This document shows positions 1,152 to 48,797 of a DNA stretch of 64,000 bases, one piece after another. Positions within the stretch are counted from its first letter, which is position 1, and every line of letters starts with the position of its first letter. A model generated the notes under the pieces. It had not been told where the DNA came from and ran no database searches. It saw nothing but the letters and a program-made list of their open reading frames with translations. Origin of the DNA: a virus; the IMG/VR virus record IMGVR_UViG_3300032893_000735, positions 41,826-105,825 of that record. One strand, given 5' to 3'. Both the position numbers and the translations under genes were made by a program.

Positions 1152-1337
1152 TTACCTTCCTTTTGATTTCTTTTTCTTGCTCACCCCGGCTTCACTGAGG
1201 GCGATTGCGATCCCTTGTTTAGGGTTGGTTACTTTCTGGCCAGAGCTAGACTTCAGCTTTCCCGACTTAAACTCGTGCATCACATCCGATACCGCTTTAC
1301 GCTTACCGGCTTTGGTGGTTGGTTTTCTTGCTGGCAT
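1152..1337 (-). CDS. Small basic DUF6496-like protein
   Basis: VMHEFKSGKLKSSSGQKVTNPKQGIAIALSEAG motif; likely start is MPARK. Confidence 0.7.
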   Translation of the reverse strand: MPARKPTTKAGKRKAVSDVMHEFKSGKLKSSSGQKVTNPKQGIAIALSEAGVSKKKKSKGR

Positions 1338-1422
1338 ATTTCGTCCATTTTCTGGATTGCTTCGTCCTGTTCTCTCAGTTGATCTGGCTAGGCCGGGTAT
1401 CGTCGTGCTCACAGCGTCAGCG

Positions 1423-4128
1423 CTACTGGAAGCAGCGCACATTGTACGTTTTTGCTGTAGGCGTGGCGCTTGTTCCGCCGTAATTCCAAACGAGCACTGC
1501 CACTGTGTTTGTGCCGTTTCCATAAGCCTGAACGACGAATGGATAGCCAGGGCCGGCGGATCCATCTGTGGCGGTCGCAACACAATTCATGCCGGACGTT
1601 GCTCCAGTCACTGTGACAGCCGCGCTGGTATTGCTACCCGATGGAACGCTCGATCCGCCGATGCTTGAGCTGGTCCCCGTAAGAGGGGCGATGTAGTTAT
1701 TCACGGCCACCCACGAGGATCCGTTGTAAATCCATCCGTAGGTTGTTCCCGCGCTCAAAGCGTCGCGAACAAAGTCGCCCTGTTGGTATCCGGTTCCCGA
1801 ACTCGGAATAGATTGCCTAGTCTCAGTGCTGGAGAAAAAGACGCCTGTTCCTCCGCTCACGGTTTGCGCATAGGTACGACCGGATATTGGATCAAAAATC
1901 GAGGACCCATGCGGAGGATAATTTGGCGATGACATGCTGAGCGTAATCGGGTTGGAGTAGCTGAAATTCGGAACCTTAACGCTAAAGAACGGCGAGGATG
2001 TGGAGAAAACAACATACGGGGTCAAAGATGAAGGGCTTCCCGTATAGCTAATATCATCACCATTGAATCGAAGGCCGCTCCCTGCGTTGTCTCCACTTGC
2101 TCCAAGAAAATATGTTCCATAAACCATCGTCGGCGTCGTTTGTGTGTCCGAAATTACGTTGTTCTCTGCTACCGAACCAGACCATGCTGTCACGGTGCTG
2201 ATCGTAATTCCAGACTGCCAAAGGGAAAAACAAAAGCTGGACGCGCTTCCGTTTCGCTGGCCGGGATTATGAATATGGTTCCCCGAGATATCCAAATCAG
2301 TGACCGTCGAGAGTGGCTGAATCGTGATGCCTGAACACAGTGGGCTTTCGATGGTGTTTCCGATAATAGACACGTTCGCCAGCGGGGTCGCATTCGATCC
2401 CGACAGAGCGATGCCCGCAGAAAAGCTATTGGTCGCCAGCGTGTCTGCGACGAATCGAATGTTGTTGTTCTCGATGTGGACATTCGTCAAACCGTAGGTG
2501 CTTGCCGGAAAGAGAGCAACTCCCGATTCGTCATTGGAAACCGACCAGGGATTGGCACCTCGGTTCACGCTGATGATGTTTCCGGTTATGTTCAACCCGT
2601 CATAACTCCCGTCCGTAGCCCAGATCGAAACTCCTCGATTCACATTCGAGCAGGTGTTTCCGATCACATTGAGGTCATGAACGACGGATTCATTTGCACT
2701 CGTGGCAACGCATGCCCTGTAGTTTTGGATAACATTGCCGCTGACGATCTTCGAATCCTGGTGCACCTCGATTGCGGTTCGCACCCCAATTCCCGCGGCT
2801 TGAAACGTGTTTCCCTCCACGATCCCGCCTGTCCCCGTCAGATAAATCTCCGAGGAGTCATGGTCGTAGGTTCCACCGATCCCCATGTTGGACCAATGAT
2901 TGTTGATGATCGAACAGTTATTGCACAAGTTGAGCGAAACCGTCTGAACGTCGTTCCCATTGATGAACTTTACGTTTTGAACCGTGACATTATGCGCCGT
3001 CCCGCCATTTATCTGAAAGGCGATGTGCTCATTTGCGCCGATTGGGTTGCTGTTCACTGCGTTGTTCGCGGCGTTCCCATCGATGGTCAGGTTTTCGATG
3101 GTCACGTTTGCGGGCGAACCGCTGAAATCGAACAACGCCCGATAGTTGCCGAGTGAATTTCCAATCTTGATTGTTCCGCTTCCGGTGAAGCCGATATTGT
3201 TGTAAGGGATCGTGTAAATATAGCCGCCCGGTGAGGGATTTGAGCCGATGACACACACAGTGGAATCGGGTATGTAAATTCGCACCGGGACAGTATAGGC
3301 TCCCCCCGCCGTGATCGCTGCCCCAATCGCCGCGCGGTCGTCCGTTGAGCCGTCGCACTTCGCTCCATAAGCCGCGTTGCGAATGTCGATTACCGGCGTC
3401 ACGGCAGAGATCGCATTCGCAGCCGCGACGGTACTAAAGTTGGCAGGTCCAGGAGTTCCCGTCTGCCCGATGCTGGAGGGGTTAATCGCGTTTCCATCTA
3501 CGACGGCGGTAGCCGCGCCTTGAGCATTATTCTGCCCAGTCCCGCCTAAAGGAATCGAAATAGGGTAAGACGGGGCGGTTGAAGAATTGGCGCAAACATT
3601 CGGAATGACCTGGGACCCTTGCCCAGGCGCGGATATAGTCTCAGTTACACAATAGTTCAGAGGGATATAGTACCCGTAGTTCCCGTTCGAGTCAGTTGTC
3701 ACTGAGCTAGAGGCGATAGGAACAGACAAAGCTGGGTCAGAATAAATAGTCGCCCCAGACCCCGTACCCGTAACCGTAACCCTAACCGTAGCATAAGGAG
3801 CCACCTGAGCGGTGATAGTATTCGTCCCGCGCATCAGGACTTGGTTAGTCCGATGGTAACCTCCTGTCGCTTGCTGGGCCAGTCCGAAAAATGGACAAAG
3901 TAAAATAAGTAGTAGTAAAAGTTTCTTCACAATCCCTCTGTCTAGTTCCGGAGTTACTTGTTCTGTGGACAAATCTCGGAGGATAATCTCCGCCAGTCTC
4001 GCTTCGTTCTCATGTTCAGCAGCTATTGCTTTGTACCCATTGTGTCGAGCCATCCCAGCTTCCCGTATTGATTTCTGGCGATGGCCCGAAACGAACAACC
4101 TGACTCGCTCCAAAACTTCGAACGTCAT
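1423..4128 (-). CDS. Tailspike/depolymerase-like right-handed beta-helix protein (pectate-lyase-3-like); probable start GTG 3930 with signal-peptide-like N-terminus
   Basis: YGAKCDGSTDDRAAIGAAI motif followed by repeated IxGNxI beta-helix turns; GAGGG RBS before GTG at 3930. Confidence 0.8.
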   Translation of the reverse strand: MTFEVLERVRLFVSGHRQKSIREAGMARHNGYKAIAAEHENEARLAEIILRDLSTEQVTPELDRGIVKKLLLLLILLCPFFGLAQQATGGYHRTNQVLMRGTNTITAQVAPYATVRVTVTGTGSGATIYSDPALSVPIASSSVTTDSNGNYGYYIPLNYCVTETISAPGQGSQVIPNVCANSSTAPSYPISIPLGGTGQNNAQGAATAVVDGNAINPSSIGQTGTPGPANFSTVAAANAISAVTPVIDIRNAAYGAKCDGSTDDRAAIGAAITAGGAYTVPVRIYIPDSTVCVIGSNPSPGGYIYTIPYNNIGFTGSGTIKIGNSLGNYRALFDFSGSPANVTIENLTIDGNAANNAVNSNPIGANEHIAFQINGGTAHNVTVQNVKFINGNDVQTVSLNLCNNCSIINNHWSNMGIGGTYDHDSSEIYLTGTGGIVEGNTFQAAGIGVRTAIEVHQDSKIVSGNVIQNYRACVATSANESVVHDLNVIGNTCSNVNRGVSIWATDGSYDGLNITGNIISVNRGANPWSVSNDESGVALFPASTYGLTNVHIENNNIRFVADTLATNSFSAGIALSGSNATPLANVSIIGNTIESPLCSGITIQPLSTVTDLDISGNHIHNPGQRNGSASSFCFSLWQSGITISTVTAWSGSVAENNVISDTQTTPTMVYGTYFLGASGDNAGSGLRFNGDDISYTGSPSSLTPYVVFSTSSPFFSVKVPNFSYSNPITLSMSSPNYPPHGSSIFDPISGRTYAQTVSGGTGVFFSSTETRQSIPSSGTGYQQGDFVRDALSAGTTYGWIYNGSSWVAVNNYIAPLTGTSSSIGGSSVPSGSNTSAAVTVTGATSGMNCVATATDGSAGPGYPFVVQAYGNGTNTVAVLVWNYGGTSATPTAKTYNVRCFQ

Positions 4129-4140
4129 GCGGCCTCTAAT

Positions 4141-4860
4141 CTAGTGAGTATTATGGTAGAGTTCAGATCCCCATACGGCAGGTTCTATAAGCCGAGTTCC
4201 CATGCTAACTCCGTTCCAGGTTTTCTTCAGGGCACAGATAGTTCCTGAACAAGGGGCTGGGAACAGATAAGAATGGAACTTGGTTTGGAAATCCCCAGTG
4301 GTCTTCCCGAGATTATATGTAACGGTATTAGTGTTGTGTAGGGTTTGGGTTATGTCAGGCGAGGAGACTAATTTATCGAAATCGTATATGGACTTGTGTA
4401 GCATGTCCAGGTTGTCGTCTAATCTATTTTCAGTTTGAGGCAGGTTAACCAGAGCCCGGTGGGCATCCCCGCCGATAGTATTCATCTGGGTTTGGGTATC
4501 TTGGATCAGGCCAGTTGCGGTTTGAATGGTGCTTCGAAGGTCAACTACTCCGCCGTTCAGGTTGTCGAACAAAACTTGGCCGTGACCGTCCCAAGTAGAC
4601 ATCTGCTGCTGTTCGTGTCGTGCGACCAAATCGGTATGGACGACCAAAGACCGAGACTCATTAATCAGTTTGTCCGCGAGAACAATCGTCTCGTCGGCCT
4701 TGCTGATCGTCGTGTCCATTTTCTGGACGACAGGCGCGGCTTCGGATACGATAGCCTTGGACCGCTGTCCGACTCCACCCCACTCCCAAGTGGCCCAGGT
4801 AGCCATCGCTACCAAGGCCAGCAAGAAGATTCCAATCGAATTTAAGATATATTTGTTCAT
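4141..4860 (-). CDS. Membrane-anchored coiled-coil protein (spanin-like or MCE-like)
   Basis: N-terminal TM helix followed by a long heptad-rich region. Confidence 0.45.
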   Translation of the reverse strand: MNKYILNSIGIFLLALVAMATWATWEWGGVGQRSKAIVSEAAPVVQKMDTTISKADETIVLADKLINESRSLVVHTDLVARHEQQQMSTWDGHGQVLFDNLNGGVVDLRSTIQTATGLIQDTQTQMNTIGGDAHRALVNLPQTENRLDDNLDMLHKSIYDFDKLVSSPDITQTLHNTNTVTYNLGKTTGDFQTKFHSYLFPAPCSGTICALKKTWNGVSMGTRLIEPAVWGSELYHNTH

Positions 4861-5198
4861 TACTTCTTAATGAGAGCCGTATACTGCGGGATGTCCTTAA
4901 TCAAGGCTTCGACGGCCTGAATAACATTGATATCGAATCCAGTATTTTGCAGTTTGGCGGACGCAGCCGAGTCCCCAGCGTGCATAATAGCAGCTACATC
5001 GCCGAGAATAGCATACGCCAGTTTCTCAATAGGAAGTGCAATCGCACCATACGTAGGCACGGCTGCGGTCACTGCTTCAACCGTAGACTCAGTGGCCTGA
5101 ACTTTCTGGATACCAGCCTCGACCTTGGGTTCGTCAGCCTTAACCTTCTCGAAAACTGTTGCGAAAAAATGTCCTACTGTTTTAAACGGATTAGTCAC
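4860..5198 (-). CDS. Hypothetical protein
   Basis: GAGGAG RBS; translationally coupled to the next gene. Confidence 0.65.
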   Translation of the reverse strand: MTNPFKTVGHFFATVFEKVKADEPKVEAGIQKVQATESTVEAVTAAVPTYGAIALPIEKLAYAILGDVAAIMHAGDSAASAKLQNTGFDINVIQAVEALIKDIPQYTALIKK

Positions 5199-17894: not shown

Positions 17895-17896
17895 TC

Positions 17897-17955
17897 GCAG
17901 AGTGGCCGTCCGGAAAATGGACGGTTAATGCGGCGGTCCCGTCACAAGCCGGGAC
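17897..17955 (+). ncRNA. Twister ribozyme (circularly permuted, P1 closed as a hairpin)
   Basis: GCAGAGTG-[P1 hairpin]-TAATGCGGC-g-GTCCCG-TCACAAGC-CGGGAC; loop CAC can pair with GTG (pseudoknot). Confidence 0.8.
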
Positions 17956-19871: not shown

Positions 19872-20062
19872 TTTTCAGGACAAGGAAAGACGCGAAGTCG
19901 TGGGCGAAAGCGAATCTCCGAGGAAAATACTATCGCCTTGTGACATCTTACGTAAACGCAGAGCGCGGCTATGAGACGAAAATCGCTCTCCAGTCCCGCC
20001 CATTTAGCCGAATGAATGATCCGAAAGTTTACGCCTAACCGCTTAGCCGGAGCGTTATCCGG

Positions 20063-20118
20063 CCCCTCTACCGGGTTTAACGGTCCCGGCACTGATGAGC
20101 GCGAAAGGCGCGAAAGGG
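20063..20118 (+). ncRNA. Hammerhead ribozyme, type III
   Basis: CCC-TC, stem I (CCGGG/CCCGG), CTGATGA, GCGC-GAAAG-GCGC, GAAA, GGG. Confidence 0.85.
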
Positions 20119-20133
20119 AGAATCCAAAAAAAA

Positions 20134-20961
20134 ATGGACAGAACGACGAATCGAGTGGACGTACCGAAACGGGTTTTAGATCGCGTCTACGCATCGAAAC
20201 CTGAAGACTGGAAACAGCACGAAAACGGCGGCGGATGGGTGCATAAAACCGCTTATGTTGAAAAATCGGCTTATTTGCATCCTACGTCGATTGTGTCCGG
20301 CGATGCTCGGGTGTACGGCAATGCTCGGGTGTACGGCGATGCTTGGGTGTCCGGCAATGCTTGGGTGTACGGCAATGCTCGGGTGTACGGCGATGCTTGG
20401 GTGTCCGGCAATGCTCGGGTGTCCGGCAATGCTTGGGTGTCCGGCGATGCTCGGGTGTCCGGCGATGCTCGGGTGTCCGGCGATGCTTGGGTGTCCGGCA
20501 ATGCTCGGGTGTCCGGCAATGCTCAGGTGTCCGGCGATGCTTGGGTGTCCGGCAATGCTCGGGTGTACGGCAATGCTCAGGTGTCCGGCAATGCTCAGGT
20601 GTCCGGCGATGCTTGGGTGTCCGGCAATGCTCGGGTGTACGGCAATGCTCAGGTGTCCGGCGATGCTCGGGTGTACGGCAATGCTCGGGTGTCCGGCGAT
20701 GCTCGGGTGTCCGGCGATGCTTGGGTATTTTCGCCCCTCTACATCCAAGGCACAATGCACTCGCTCACCTTGTGCAGTTTTACGCAAATTGCTGTAGGGT
20801 GCCACGTCCATGATATAACCTATTGGATGAAGCATTACAAGGCAATAGGGCGGACCGAGGGGTACACGAAAGAACAGGTAAGCGAGTACAAACGACATTT
20901 GGATTATTTGGCCGCAGAGTCTGAGCGGCTACTGGCTGCAAAAATCGAAACGAAGGAATAA
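20134..20961 (+). CDS. Hexapeptide-repeat (V[SY]G[ND]A[RWQ]) left-handed beta-helix protein
   Basis: About 24 tandem hexapeptides; likely start ATG 20134 after GGGAG. Confidence 0.8.
   Translation: MDRTTNRVDVPKRVLDRVYASKPEDWKQHENGGGWVHKTAYVEKSAYLHPTSIVSGDARVYGNARVYGDAWVSGNAWVYGNARVYGDAWVSGNARVSGNAWVSGDARVSGDARVSGDAWVSGNARVSGNAQVSGDAWVSGNARVYGNAQVSGNAQVSGDAWVSGNARVYGNAQVSGDARVYGNARVSGDARVSGDAWVFSPLYIQGTMHSLTLCSFTQIAVGCHVHDITYWMKHYKAIGRTEGYTKEQVSEYKRHLDYLAAESERLLAAKIETKE
20293..20727 (+). repeat. 18-bp coding tandem repeat, about 24 units
   Basis: GTGT[CA]CGGC[AG]ATGCT[CT][GA]G units. Confidence 0.95.
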
Positions 20962-20989
20962 CCAACCGCCCGCCGGAGCGTATCCGGTA

Positions 20990-21041
20990 GGCTCTACAGG
21001 CAAGCCGTCACGGGGCAGAGCTGAGCATCTACTAATTGCCT
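20990..21041 (+). ncRNA. Minimal HDV-like ribozyme
   Basis: P1 GGCTCT/AGAGCT (G.U at +1), P2 AGGCAA/TTGCCT, P3 GCC/GGC, 7-nt L3, P1.1 TC/GA, J4/2 CTAA. Confidence 0.8.
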
Positions 21042-21052
21042 AAAGGAGAACC

Positions 21053-21580
21053 ATGAGTAAGTACACGGAACAGGCGGAAAAGTTTCTCAAGGACCACGGC
21101 CTGACATTCACGGCGCAGCTTATCGGGTCTGATTGCCCGAAGTTTTGCGAAGATGCAGCCAAAATGCGGGAAATGGACAACCACGAATTCCTATCAGAAG
21201 TAAACGAAGCGGGCGAAAGTTTTGCAGAATCCGCCCAAGAAATGTTAGACGCACTCCGCGCGGCGCAAGAATCCGAGGACAATGAGGCTGAGGATGAAGC
21301 GCGGCGGACAATTGACGCGCACCCGCTTTCGGTCCAGGTTCGTGGCGGATGGCATACTCCGGGTTGCGGCGGCAGAGTGGCGGAGGAATTCGAGATTCTG
21401 CTAGGCACCGGTGGCCCCGCATCCAGGATCATCGGGGAACTGAACGAATACGCCGAACCCGATTCGGCGCGGTTTGAATATCAGGATTGGTTTAAGCCGT
21501 GGACTCCAGCGCTCAACTTGTCTGAAGATCAGAATGAAGCGATCCTAGAATTTGCCCGCCAGTTCTATTACGGCGAATAA
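21053..21580 (+). CDS. Acidic hypothetical early protein
   Basis: AAGGAG RBS; FEILLGTGGPA..I.G motif. Confidence 0.8.
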   Translation: MSKYTEQAEKFLKDHGLTFTAQLIGSDCPKFCEDAAKMREMDNHEFLSEVNEAGESFAESAQEMLDALRAAQESEDNEAEDEARRTIDAHPLSVQVRGGWHTPGCGGRVAEEFEILLGTGGPASRIIGELNEYAEPDSARFEYQDWFKPWTPALNLSEDQNEAILEFARQFYYGE

Positions 21581-21778
21581 CTCACGGCGCAACCGGCCCG
21601 CCCATCGGCCTAAAGGTGGGGCAGAGAATCAGGAAAGGGGAGTAAAAAAAAAGATGGCATACCCAACTCTTGAGCAATTTGAGCAAGCCCGCCGCGAACT
21701 AAGGCGTGCGGATAACACCGAACTGGAACAGAAAAAGCCAAAGAGCAACGAGTAACAGTCCAGAAAATGGACGACAGA

Positions 21779-47373: not shown

Positions 47374-47814
47374 ATGGAAACTTCCACAAAATGGGATCTA
47401 CGATTTTTGAATCTAGCCAAAGAGGTTGCCTCATGGAGTAAAGATCCTCCGACTCAGGTGGGTGCGATTATCACCAGAGGAAAGAAGGTAGTCTCTTTGG
47501 GTTTCAACGGGTTTCCTTCTGGGATTGTGGATGATTCTAGGTTGGATGACCGGCCGACGCGACTCGGAATGACGATCCACGCTGAGCCCAACGCAATTCT
47601 CCAAGCCAAACAAGACCTGTCTGGATGTACGATTTACGTTTGGCCGTTTATGCCGTGTTCCGACTGCGCTCTTTTGGTGGTACAATCTGGAATCAAGCGA
47701 GTTGTTGCCCCTAGATCCGACAATCCGAGGTGGGCAGACAGCTTCACGCTGTCCGAAGAAATTTTCAACGAAGCAGGTGTATTTGTCCAGAAAATGGACA
47801 AGGAGATTTTATGA
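47374..47814 (+). CDS. dcd: dCMP deaminase
   Basis: SKDP.TQVGA, GFNGFP, HAE.NA, PCSDC. Confidence 0.9.
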   Translation: METSTKWDLRFLNLAKEVASWSKDPPTQVGAIITRGKKVVSLGFNGFPSGIVDDSRLDDRPTRLGMTIHAEPNAILQAKQDLSGCTIYVWPFMPCSDCALLVVQSGIKRVVAPRSDNPRWADSFTLSEEIFNEAGVFVQKMDKEIL

Positions 47815-48797
47815 AACACATTCCGTTTCCAGATATTCAGCAATTCCGAAACACCGTCAAGACCGTCCGAGAACGGGCGGAGTACAGTGGGGTTCCGCTC
47901 CCTACTCTGACATTTGTTGGGTCTGTTGAACTGCACGGAACAAACGCTTCTGTTGTCTTTCCAGAAAATGGACAGATTGTCGTGCAGAGTCGGACACGAA
48001 TCATTACCCCAGAGCACGATAACGCTGGGTTCGCTAAATGGGTTACAGAGAACGAGGAATGGTTCGTTACTCTTCGTCGTGTTTTGCGGGAAGAATTCAA
48101 ACTAGCAAACGGATTCGTTGTCTACGGAGAATGGTGCGGCCAAGGAATCCAGAAGGGTGTGGCTATTTCTCAGGTCTCCAAGAGATTTGTAGTATTTTCA
48201 ATCGCAGTTCTCAAAGGGGAAGATCGTGAATGGGTCCATCCTCTCTGCGTCAGGTCTTTGGTGTCCCCCATGTTTTACTGCATTTACGACTACCCGACTT
48301 GGACTTTGGATATTGATTTTAACAAGCCCGAAGAATCTCAAAACCGTCTGGTAGAATTGACTCAGGCGGTTGAGAATGAATGCCCAGTAGGGAAATCGTT
48401 TGGAGTTTCTGGAGTCGGTGAGGAGATTGTTTGGTGGCCGCTTCCCGCCCTTGACTTCAATACCAGAGATTTGGCTTTCAAGGTAAAAGGAGAAAAGCAC
48501 TCCGAGTCGAAAGTTAAGACTCTGGCGGCGGTTGATGTAGAAAAACTCAACTCCTTGAACGAACTTGTTGATACTATCTTGACAGAGCACCGTCTAGAAA
48601 AGAAAATCGAATCTCTTCTTGAGCAAGGAGGAAGTCTAGACATCAAGCAAACTGGCGCTTTTCTGAAGTTAGTCGGCCAGGATGTCTACAAGGAAGAAGC
48701 GGATACCATTTCCGAGGCAGGCTTCAAGGATAGCGAAGTCATGGGCGCGGTACAAAAGAAAGCAAAGAAATTCTGGATGGAAAAATTGTCCAGATAG
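47811..48797 (+). CDS. Rnl2-like RNA ligase (motif I Lys appears as Glu)
   Basis: ELHGTN, QSR, YGEWCG.GIQK, GEEIVW, FKVKGEKHS. Confidence 0.8.
   Translation: MKHIPFPDIQQFRNTVKTVRERAEYSGVPLPTLTFVGSVELHGTNASVVFPENGQIVVQSRTRIITPEHDNAGFAKWVTENEEWFVTLRRVLREEFKLANGFVVYGEWCGQGIQKGVAISQVSKRFVVFSIAVLKGEDREWVHPLCVRSLVSPMFYCIYDYPTWTLDIDFNKPEESQNRLVELTQAVENECPVGKSFGVSGVGEEIVWWPLPALDFNTRDLAFKVKGEKHSESKVKTLAAVDVEKLNSLNELVDTILTEHRLEKKIESLLEQGGSLDIKQTGAFLKLVGQDVYKEEADTISEAGFKDSEVMGAVQKKAKKFWMEKLSR

Follow-up and report, generated by a model that had tools for sequence, protein, structure and literature searches.

A candidate minimal HDV-like ribozyme with a variant L3 loop in a phage gene spacer where self-cleaving ribozymes of different classes interchange

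The window analysed here, a 64,000-nt stretch of a complete 105,825-bp genome of a wetland phage, contains on its plus strand a 91-nt spacer that extends from the TAA stop codon (20959-20961) of a gene encoding a beta-solenoid repeat protein (Pfam B_solenoid_ydck) to the ATG at 21053 of the following gene. From 5' to 3', this spacer comprises a hairpin CCGGAGCGTATCCGG (20973-20987, stem CCGGA/UCCGG), the dinucleotide UA, a 52-nt candidate ribozyme (20990-21041), a single base and the Shine-Dalgarno sequence AAGGAG (21043-21048), which together with the ATG forms the start of the downstream gene (21043-21055). The end of the candidate at 21041 agrees with the earlier note on this DNA, which had placed it just before the ribosome-binding site. 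The hairpin is the 3' part of a longer motif, AACCG-N4-CCGGAGCGTATCCGG (20964-20987), conserved in other phages as described below. Neither a consensus promoter nor an intrinsic terminator was found on the plus strand of the spacer, which is consistent with read-through transcription and would suit a polycistronic message in which ribozymes act as punctuation. Across the element, the DNA contigs from the probable source sample carry the identical sequence, a second wetland run having no coverage there.

The downstream gene (21053-21580, plus strand) encodes a protein of 175 aa without Pfam or PHROG family, which belongs to a large conserved phage family carrying the motifs ILLGTGGPA and QDWFKPW. 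Its N-terminus, encoded by window positions 21053-21172, consists of about 40 extra residues (MSKYTEQAEKFLKDHGLTFTAQLIGSDCPKFCEDAAKMRE) that are absent from all 39 of the 39 aligned homologues; these start near M41, and the additional segment could have arisen as an extension particular to this lineage or by fusion of a small ORF. The repeats of the upstream beta-solenoid gene (window 20200-20750) recur in thousands of contigs at 82-99% likeness, in lake, freshwater and wastewater runs, and this very widespread repeat accounts for the small shares of words held by many sequencing runs. The tRNA genes of the window are located elsewhere, between 9643 and 13292 on the minus strand, where ARAGORN detects 22 of them instead of the 30 counted in the earlier note. 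The absence of an HDV-like ribozyme beside the tRNAs, also reported there, was confirmed, the descriptor match adjoining none of them.

Divided into fields as in the theta-ribozyme supplement (Kienbeck et al. 2024, PMC10879173), with slashes as separators, the candidate reads GGCTCT/AC/AGGCAA/GCC/G/TC/ACGG/GGC/AGAGCT/GA/GCATCTA/CTAA/TTGCCT. This parse, which bears out the drawing described in the earlier note (full nested double pseudoknot, G.U first pair, no P4, C21032 in CUAA), corresponds to a complete P4-less HDV-like fold built from standard pairs throughout. P1 is formed by six base pairs between GGCUCU (20990-20995) and AGAGCU (21017-21022). It opens, as in the HDV-like ribozymes where a G in a G.U or G-C pair lies 3' of the scissile bond, with the pair G20990.U21022, and the predicted scissile bond lies between A20989 and G20990. 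The J1/2 linker, AC, has 2 nt and is within the limit of 3 nt known for theta ribozymes. The strand that follows P1 pairs with the very 3' end of the element to produce the P2 pseudoknot, with six Watson-Crick pairs between AGGCAA (20998-21003) and UUGCCU (21036-21041). The three pairs of P3, GCC/GGC (21004-21006 with 21014-21016), close the 7-nt L3 loop GUCACGG (21007-21013), whose size falls in the 7-8 nt of HDV-like folds and which provides the two pairs of P1.1, U21008-A21024 and C21009-G21023. In place of P4 there is a simple L4 loop, GCAUCUA, of 7 nt, theta ribozymes ranging here from 5 to 17 nt. Finally, J4/2 reads CUAA (21032-21035), which conforms to C-N-A-A(N) and, as CTAA, is the commonest J4/2 of the theta listing; its first base, C21032, is the candidate general-acid cytosine. 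None of the 17 pairs is therefore lost, the catalytic C is in place together with the AA of J4/2, and the only wobble is the canonical G.U. The fold is only partially recovered by energy minimization: the minimum free energy structure of the 52-mer displays P1 and P3, that of the 99-nt spacer P2 and P3, and the candidate is not more stable than shuffled sequences in a calculation where nested-only folding cannot credit the pseudoknot.

The core of the candidate departs from the HDV consensus in L3. In the HDV ribozyme, U20 pairs with G25 as a reverse wobble beside the catalytic metal ion, and the U at this position of L3 is invariant in 508 natural HDV sequences (PMC3386971). The equivalent of G25 is present in the window (G21012), but the equivalent of U20 is a G (G21007). 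A U is the first base of L3 in all listed theta examples and in each of the other phage HDV-like ribozymes parsed in this work (7/7). The last base of the loop is also a G (G21013), where the theta motif has a pyrimidine. The earlier reading as a minimal HDV-like ribozyme is partly supported: by the fold, by its uniqueness in the genome and above all by the synteny presented below, but not by the theta L3 motif, which fails at the U20 equivalent and at the last base of the loop. When viral contigs were searched with a pattern for the same L3 (GCCGTCACGGGGC..GA..CNAA), 11 matches were obtained, none of them with an HDV-like fold, and these were discarded as chance occurrences rather than further natural examples. 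The consequences for activity can be approached through an engineered counterpart: in the trans-acting antigenomic HDV ribozyme, the G23/G28 mutant is one of only 4 of the 15 mutant combinations that still cleave, with a k2 of 0.0037 per min, 470-fold below wild type (PMC3386971). By analogy, the G at the U20 equivalent probably makes cleavage slower than in the canonical relatives, and the changed core base may leave the element slow or even dead. As the fastest minimal and theta ribozymes exceed 10 per min, a several-hundred-fold loss could still allow cleavage in minutes to tens of minutes.

The rarity of this fold was evaluated with a relaxed HDV descriptor in which all the helices were demanded, L3 was left free except for the two P1.1 bases and J4/2 had to contain C-N-A-A. 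The candidate was the sole match when both strands of the 105,825-bp genome were scanned in full, and decoy descriptors with A, G or T(U) at the position of the catalytic C gave zero matches on the same two strands. In 56 first-order Markov random genomes generated from the dinucleotide frequencies of the phage, 2 sites were found, corresponding to about 0.04 per genome, in agreement with an analytical estimate; for the 91-nt spacer alone, the expectation calculated from base-pair probabilities is about 1e-5. In 568 kb of related phage loci, the decoys yielded one independent false match and the motif with C matched only canonical HDV-like ribozymes. The genome-wide value of about 0.04 is modest by itself, and it is the position of the candidate that makes the case.

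The Rfam models RF00094 and RF02682 gave no match to the candidate at E<=10 in a 221-nt search (20900-21120), and no HDV match was obtained in the whole window at gathering scores. With the same HDV models, the minimal ribozyme of L081, the closest locus fetched, reaches 24-26 bits and the relatives bearing P4 reach 31-37 bits, for gathering scores of 44 and 50. Since these canonical syntenic relatives also score below gathering, the Rfam HDV models are insensitive to the phage forms, among which, in this Rfam comparison, the window copy is the least canonical. Searches by sequence similarity were equally silent: positions 20800-21600 had no blastn match in GenBank phages, the exact 35-nt ribozyme core had none in viral contigs, and a single-protein query against viral contigs returned nothing. 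Related loci were recovered by alignment-based searches.

The family of the downstream gene was represented by 160 fetched loci. The closest protein relatives of its product (P0002-P0007) share 56-66% identity with it. The closest of the loci fetched, L081, with 60% protein identity, carries a strict theta-type HDV-like ribozyme in the same slot. The layout is that of the window: a hairpin CCGGATCGTATACCGG, three bases, the ribozyme, then AAAGGAGAGAC-ATG of the homologous gene. Its parse is GCTTTGC/CAA/TAGTCCA/GCC/T/CC/ACGC/GGC/GCAGAGC/GG/ATTACG/CTAAT/GGGACTA. The P1 and P2 sequences of the two phages are wholly different and still paired, whereas both have the same P3, the same ACG in L3 and the same CUAA in J4/2. 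When the seven HDV-like sequences were aligned with MAFFT, the copies from the window and L081 were not matched correctly, and this covariation argument rests on the descriptor parses. The gene located upstream of the cassette is not the same in L081 and in the window phage, so that the conserved unit consists of the hairpin, the ribozyme, the ribosome-binding site and the downstream gene. A partial match to the tmRNA model (28.5 bits, E 3e-8, far below gathering) was noticed in L081 just after the family gene, at 1396-1450, where a tRNA-like structure may be present.

In two other loci, L058 and L071, the start codon of the homologous gene lies about 28 nt beyond the 3' end of an HDV-like ribozyme that has a P4; this P4 is of unlike sequence in the two loci and is paired in each. 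As a separate observation, L058 (IMGVR_UViG_3300009854_000325), a high-GC phage contig, harbors a very dense ribozyme array over 3.8 kb (1196-4978), with four HDV-like ribozymes (2357-2430, 2859-2939, 4390-4462 and 4902-4978) and two twister-sister ribozymes (1196-1267 and 4027-4095). A different class is found in L001, from a relative's contig of 104,680 bp, close to this genome in size, in which the hairpin CCGGATCGTAACCGG is directly followed by a type-P1 twister and then by the homologous gene. The twister-P1 assignment by Rfam (52.2 bits, E 9e-10) includes matches at the conserved twister positions of the model consensus, and a reading of the same sequence as a degenerate HDV-like fold (P1 and P3 without P2) was ruled out on this basis. 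Elsewhere in this contig, at 3644-3718, lies a weak HDV-like match (RF02682, 21 bits) with recognizable P1, P1.1, P2, P4 and CUAA; with an L3 of about 17 nt, it may represent an HDV-like variant with an expanded L3. No ribozyme was detected by Rfam at E<=0.5 in 20 further loci of the gene family, which indicates that the slot is lineage-specific. The presence of an HDV-like ribozyme and of a twister in a single orthologous slot suggests that self-cleavage, and not one particular fold, is what this slot keeps. This interchange, seen in the comparison of the loci, argues more strongly than anything else that the window element works as a ribozyme or did so until recently.

The hairpin is the second constant of this arrangement. 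In the window, it ends 2 nt before the predicted cleavage site and forms in the minimum free energy fold of the spacer. The motif has only two copies in the genome, at 20964-20987 and 20038-20062 with the AACCG flank included. The same motif lies ahead of the ribozymes of L081 (872-899) and L001 (2397-2423), and ahead of a hammerhead-like sequence in a further locus, L082 (478-504). Hairpin and 5' AACCG flank are thus conserved in sequence across phages, upstream of HDV-like, twister and hammerhead elements, and, as far as the compared sequences indicate, a purely structural role does not explain this conservation ahead of three classes. The exact hairpin CCGGATCGTAACCGG was also searched in viral contigs; it has at least 119 matches there, and among those listed none precedes an HDV-like or hammerhead core, so that they were not retained as further cassettes and are regarded as mostly chance. 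The hammerhead-like sequence of L082 (505-570, following the hairpin) reads CCCCUC..GCGC-AAAA-GCGC-GAAA-GGGG, with a core CUGGCGAUGA that is not CUGANGA. It has no Rfam match, may be a decayed or variant hammerhead judging from its core, and is separated from the family gene by an extra small ORF.

The second copy of the motif in the window belongs to a sister cassette on the plus strand (20047-20118), one gene away from the candidate. It is composed of the hairpin CCGGAGCGTTATCCGG (20047-20062) and of a compact type III hammerhead (20064-20118) with a predicted cleavage after C20068, whose minimum free energy structure is a three-way junction that has CUGAUGA and GAAA at its center. Its Rfam match to Hammerhead_II, of 20.3 bits (E 0.05), does not reach the gathering score. 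The ATG at 20095, listed as the start of an ORF, is the AUG inside CUGAUGA, and the beta-solenoid gene more likely starts at the ATG at 20134, behind GGGAG. A third ribozyme, a type-P5 twister (17896-17953, plus strand; RF02684, 57.3 bits for a gathering score of 37.6), lies 3 kb upstream of the candidate in the same plus-strand gene block, where it immediately follows a small gene's stop codon and precedes a hairpin CCGUGAAACUCACGG and the next ribosome-binding site. The twister-P5, the hammerhead and the HDV-like element are all contained within 3.2 kb.

Taken together, the fold, its rarity and the conservation of its position with interchange of classes indicate that 20990-21041 very probably belongs to the lineage of HDV-like (delta) ribozymes, as a minimal form lacking P4. 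The reading preferred here, with moderate confidence, is that of a working ribozyme placed in a conserved slot of a polycistronic phage message. During transcription, P1, P3 and P1.1 would form first and P2 afterwards; C21032 would protonate the leaving group, and the RNA would be cut co-transcriptionally between A20989 and G20990. The upstream message would then end with the conserved hairpin followed by UA bearing a 2',3'-cyclic phosphate, while the downstream message would begin with a 5'-OH and a compact ribozyme fold located one base ahead of the Shine-Dalgarno sequence. Such a cut is expected to uncouple the two cistrons, with independent stability and translation, and to give the downstream gene a fixed structured leader, an insulator effect that would be a natural counterpart of the synthetic ribozyme insulators. 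The cut itself, its rate and its effects on RNA stability and translation are inferred. The gene content of the phage may be counted in favor of a ribozyme. An RNA ligase annotated as belonging to the DRB0094 family is 140-fold enriched in phages with theta ribozymes (PMC10879173), and the window encodes a PF09414 RNA ligase (47730-48797, 355 aa, 48 bits), a weak match to the Rnl2 family that may or may not belong to DRB0094. Neither RtcB (PF01139) nor the family of the CCA-adding enzyme (PF01743) was found in the genome.

The main competitor, possible if rather unlikely, is that the element descends from a working HDV-like form in which the U-to-G change in L3 has effectively killed cleavage. 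It would then persist as a structured leader, and any processing of the junction would now depend on the hairpin and host RNases. The invariable U of natural HDV sequences and the 470-fold penalty of the G23/G28 mutant (PMC3386971) are compatible with such a decay, as are the U of the 7/7 other parsed phage ribozymes and the lack of any Rfam match at E<=10; the sequence of L082, hammerhead-like but without a canonical CUGANGA core, moreover suggests that ribozymes of these slots do decay. However, in a fast-evolving phage spacer, pairs should be lost once an element is dead, whereas all 17 pairs of the candidate are untouched, as are its catalytic C and the AA. The G/G pair is besides among the few combinations that keep measurable activity (PMC3386971), and starting rates above 10 per min leave room for a substantial loss.

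An extension of the preferred reading of a working ribozyme can be proposed tentatively, and with some doubt. The motif AACCG..CCGGA(G/U)CGU..CCGG and the interchangeable ribozyme behind it would together make up, in these phages from wetland and soil, a modular "punctuation cassette" with the hairpin as a functional partner, and the G.G copy of the window would still cleave, at a tuned slower rate. The hairpin would serve as the capped 3' end of the upstream fragment or as a protein-recognition site, possibly tied to the RNA ligase.

It appears improbable that the fold is a leader that never cleaves and that controls the downstream gene as a translational operator or by binding a protein or a ligand. 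A single base separates the fold from the Shine-Dalgarno sequence, the minimum free energy structure of the spacer pairs CUC of the 5' strand of P1 with the GAG of this sequence in a way that would allow a switch, and HDV-like folds promote translation initiation in some retrotransposons (PMC6765202). This alternative pairing nevertheless amounts to only 3 bp in a fold no more stable than shuffles, and the slot is filled in the relatives by unrelated ribozyme classes that share self-cleavage and not shape. Least probable of all, a fortuitous look-alike would take advantage of short helices (6+6+3+2 bp), of a descriptor relaxed after the fact for the odd L3, of the missing Rfam match and of a genome-wide expectation that is not negligible, but it would have to arise in the sense orientation, within a 91-nt spacer (expectation about 1e-5) and at the exact position, behind the same hairpin, where the relatives carry HDV-like or twister ribozymes, and to share with theta examples features not demanded by the descriptor, namely the ACG of L3, the U of CUAA in J4/2 and the GCC/GGC of P3.

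The biological role of most self-cleaving ribozymes of bacteria and phages is still open (PMC6765202). The idea that they act in mRNA processing or as insulators becomes directly testable in a compact setting here, at a slot immediately upstream of a conserved gene's ribosome-binding site. HDV-like ribozymes in two phages, a twister in a third and a hammerhead behind the same hairpin one gene away suggest that cleavage at this point is a selected trait. The natural occurrence of an HDV-like sequence with G at the U20 position is instructive in either case: if active, the element would inform the models of the catalytic metal site, and if dead, it would show how such ribozymes decay.

Among known systems, the closest are phage ribozymes of the theta and minimal HDV-like types (PMC10879173; drz-Mtgn-1). 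The candidate shares with them a length of about 52 nt, the absence of P4, the order and lengths of the strands, a P1 of 6 bp starting with G, a J1/2 of 1-2 nt, a P2 of 6-7 bp, the GCC/GGC of P3, a 7-nt L3 with a 2-bp P1.1 (TC/GA being also found among the listed theta examples), a short L4 and a J4/2 that reads CUAA. The genome is likewise of the tailed-phage type. The differences lie first in L3: theta search motif iv, inferred here from its listed examples (Kienbeck et al. 2024, PMC10879173), requires U, the two P1.1 bases and N-C-G-Y, and the G-UC-ACGG of the window fails at the first and last bases. With these two positions failing, the final theta search motif would not find the candidate, which is not a theta ribozyme by the family motif. 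The host is a wetland phage, whereas theta ribozymes come from gut phages, and the cleavage site follows a protein gene and a sequence-conserved hairpin, unlike that of the theta ribozymes linked to the 3' end of a tRNA. [quoted passage not shown] The candidate, intergenic and in sense with the next gene, resembles these 526, and its lack of a tRNA link, presented as a novelty in that note, is thus already on record for some 40% of theta occurrences.

The closest counterpart of its L3 is the HDV mutant G23/G28 (Levesque, Reymond and Perreault 2012, PMC3386971), with the same G/G as G21007/G21012. This mutant is engineered, trans-acting and endowed with a P4, whereas the candidate is cis-acting and minimal, so that the 470-fold penalty may not transfer. 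At the level of gene organization, clusters of twister, hammerhead and other self-cleaving ribozymes have been described near the same phage and prophage genes, and bacterial hammerhead and twister ribozymes have been suggested, without proof, to process polycistronic mRNA (PMC6765202). These clusters, like the locus analysed here, bring several unrelated classes close together between genes. The interchange can here be traced to one orthologous slot, which holds an HDV-like element in the window and in L081 and a twister-P1 in L001. In the synthetic insulators of the RiboJ type, a self-cleaving ribozyme placed immediately upstream of the ribosome-binding site removes variable upstream RNA and leaves a constant leader; RiboJ, an engineered hammerhead, is followed on the 3' side by its hairpin, whereas the candidate is natural, of the HDV type, and has its hairpin on the 5' side. 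Publications already describe minimal HDV-like ribozymes that lie in phage spacers at a distance from tRNAs, and the candidate is not a new kind; its noteworthy features are the G at the U20 position and the swap of classes at one orthologous slot behind a conserved hairpin.
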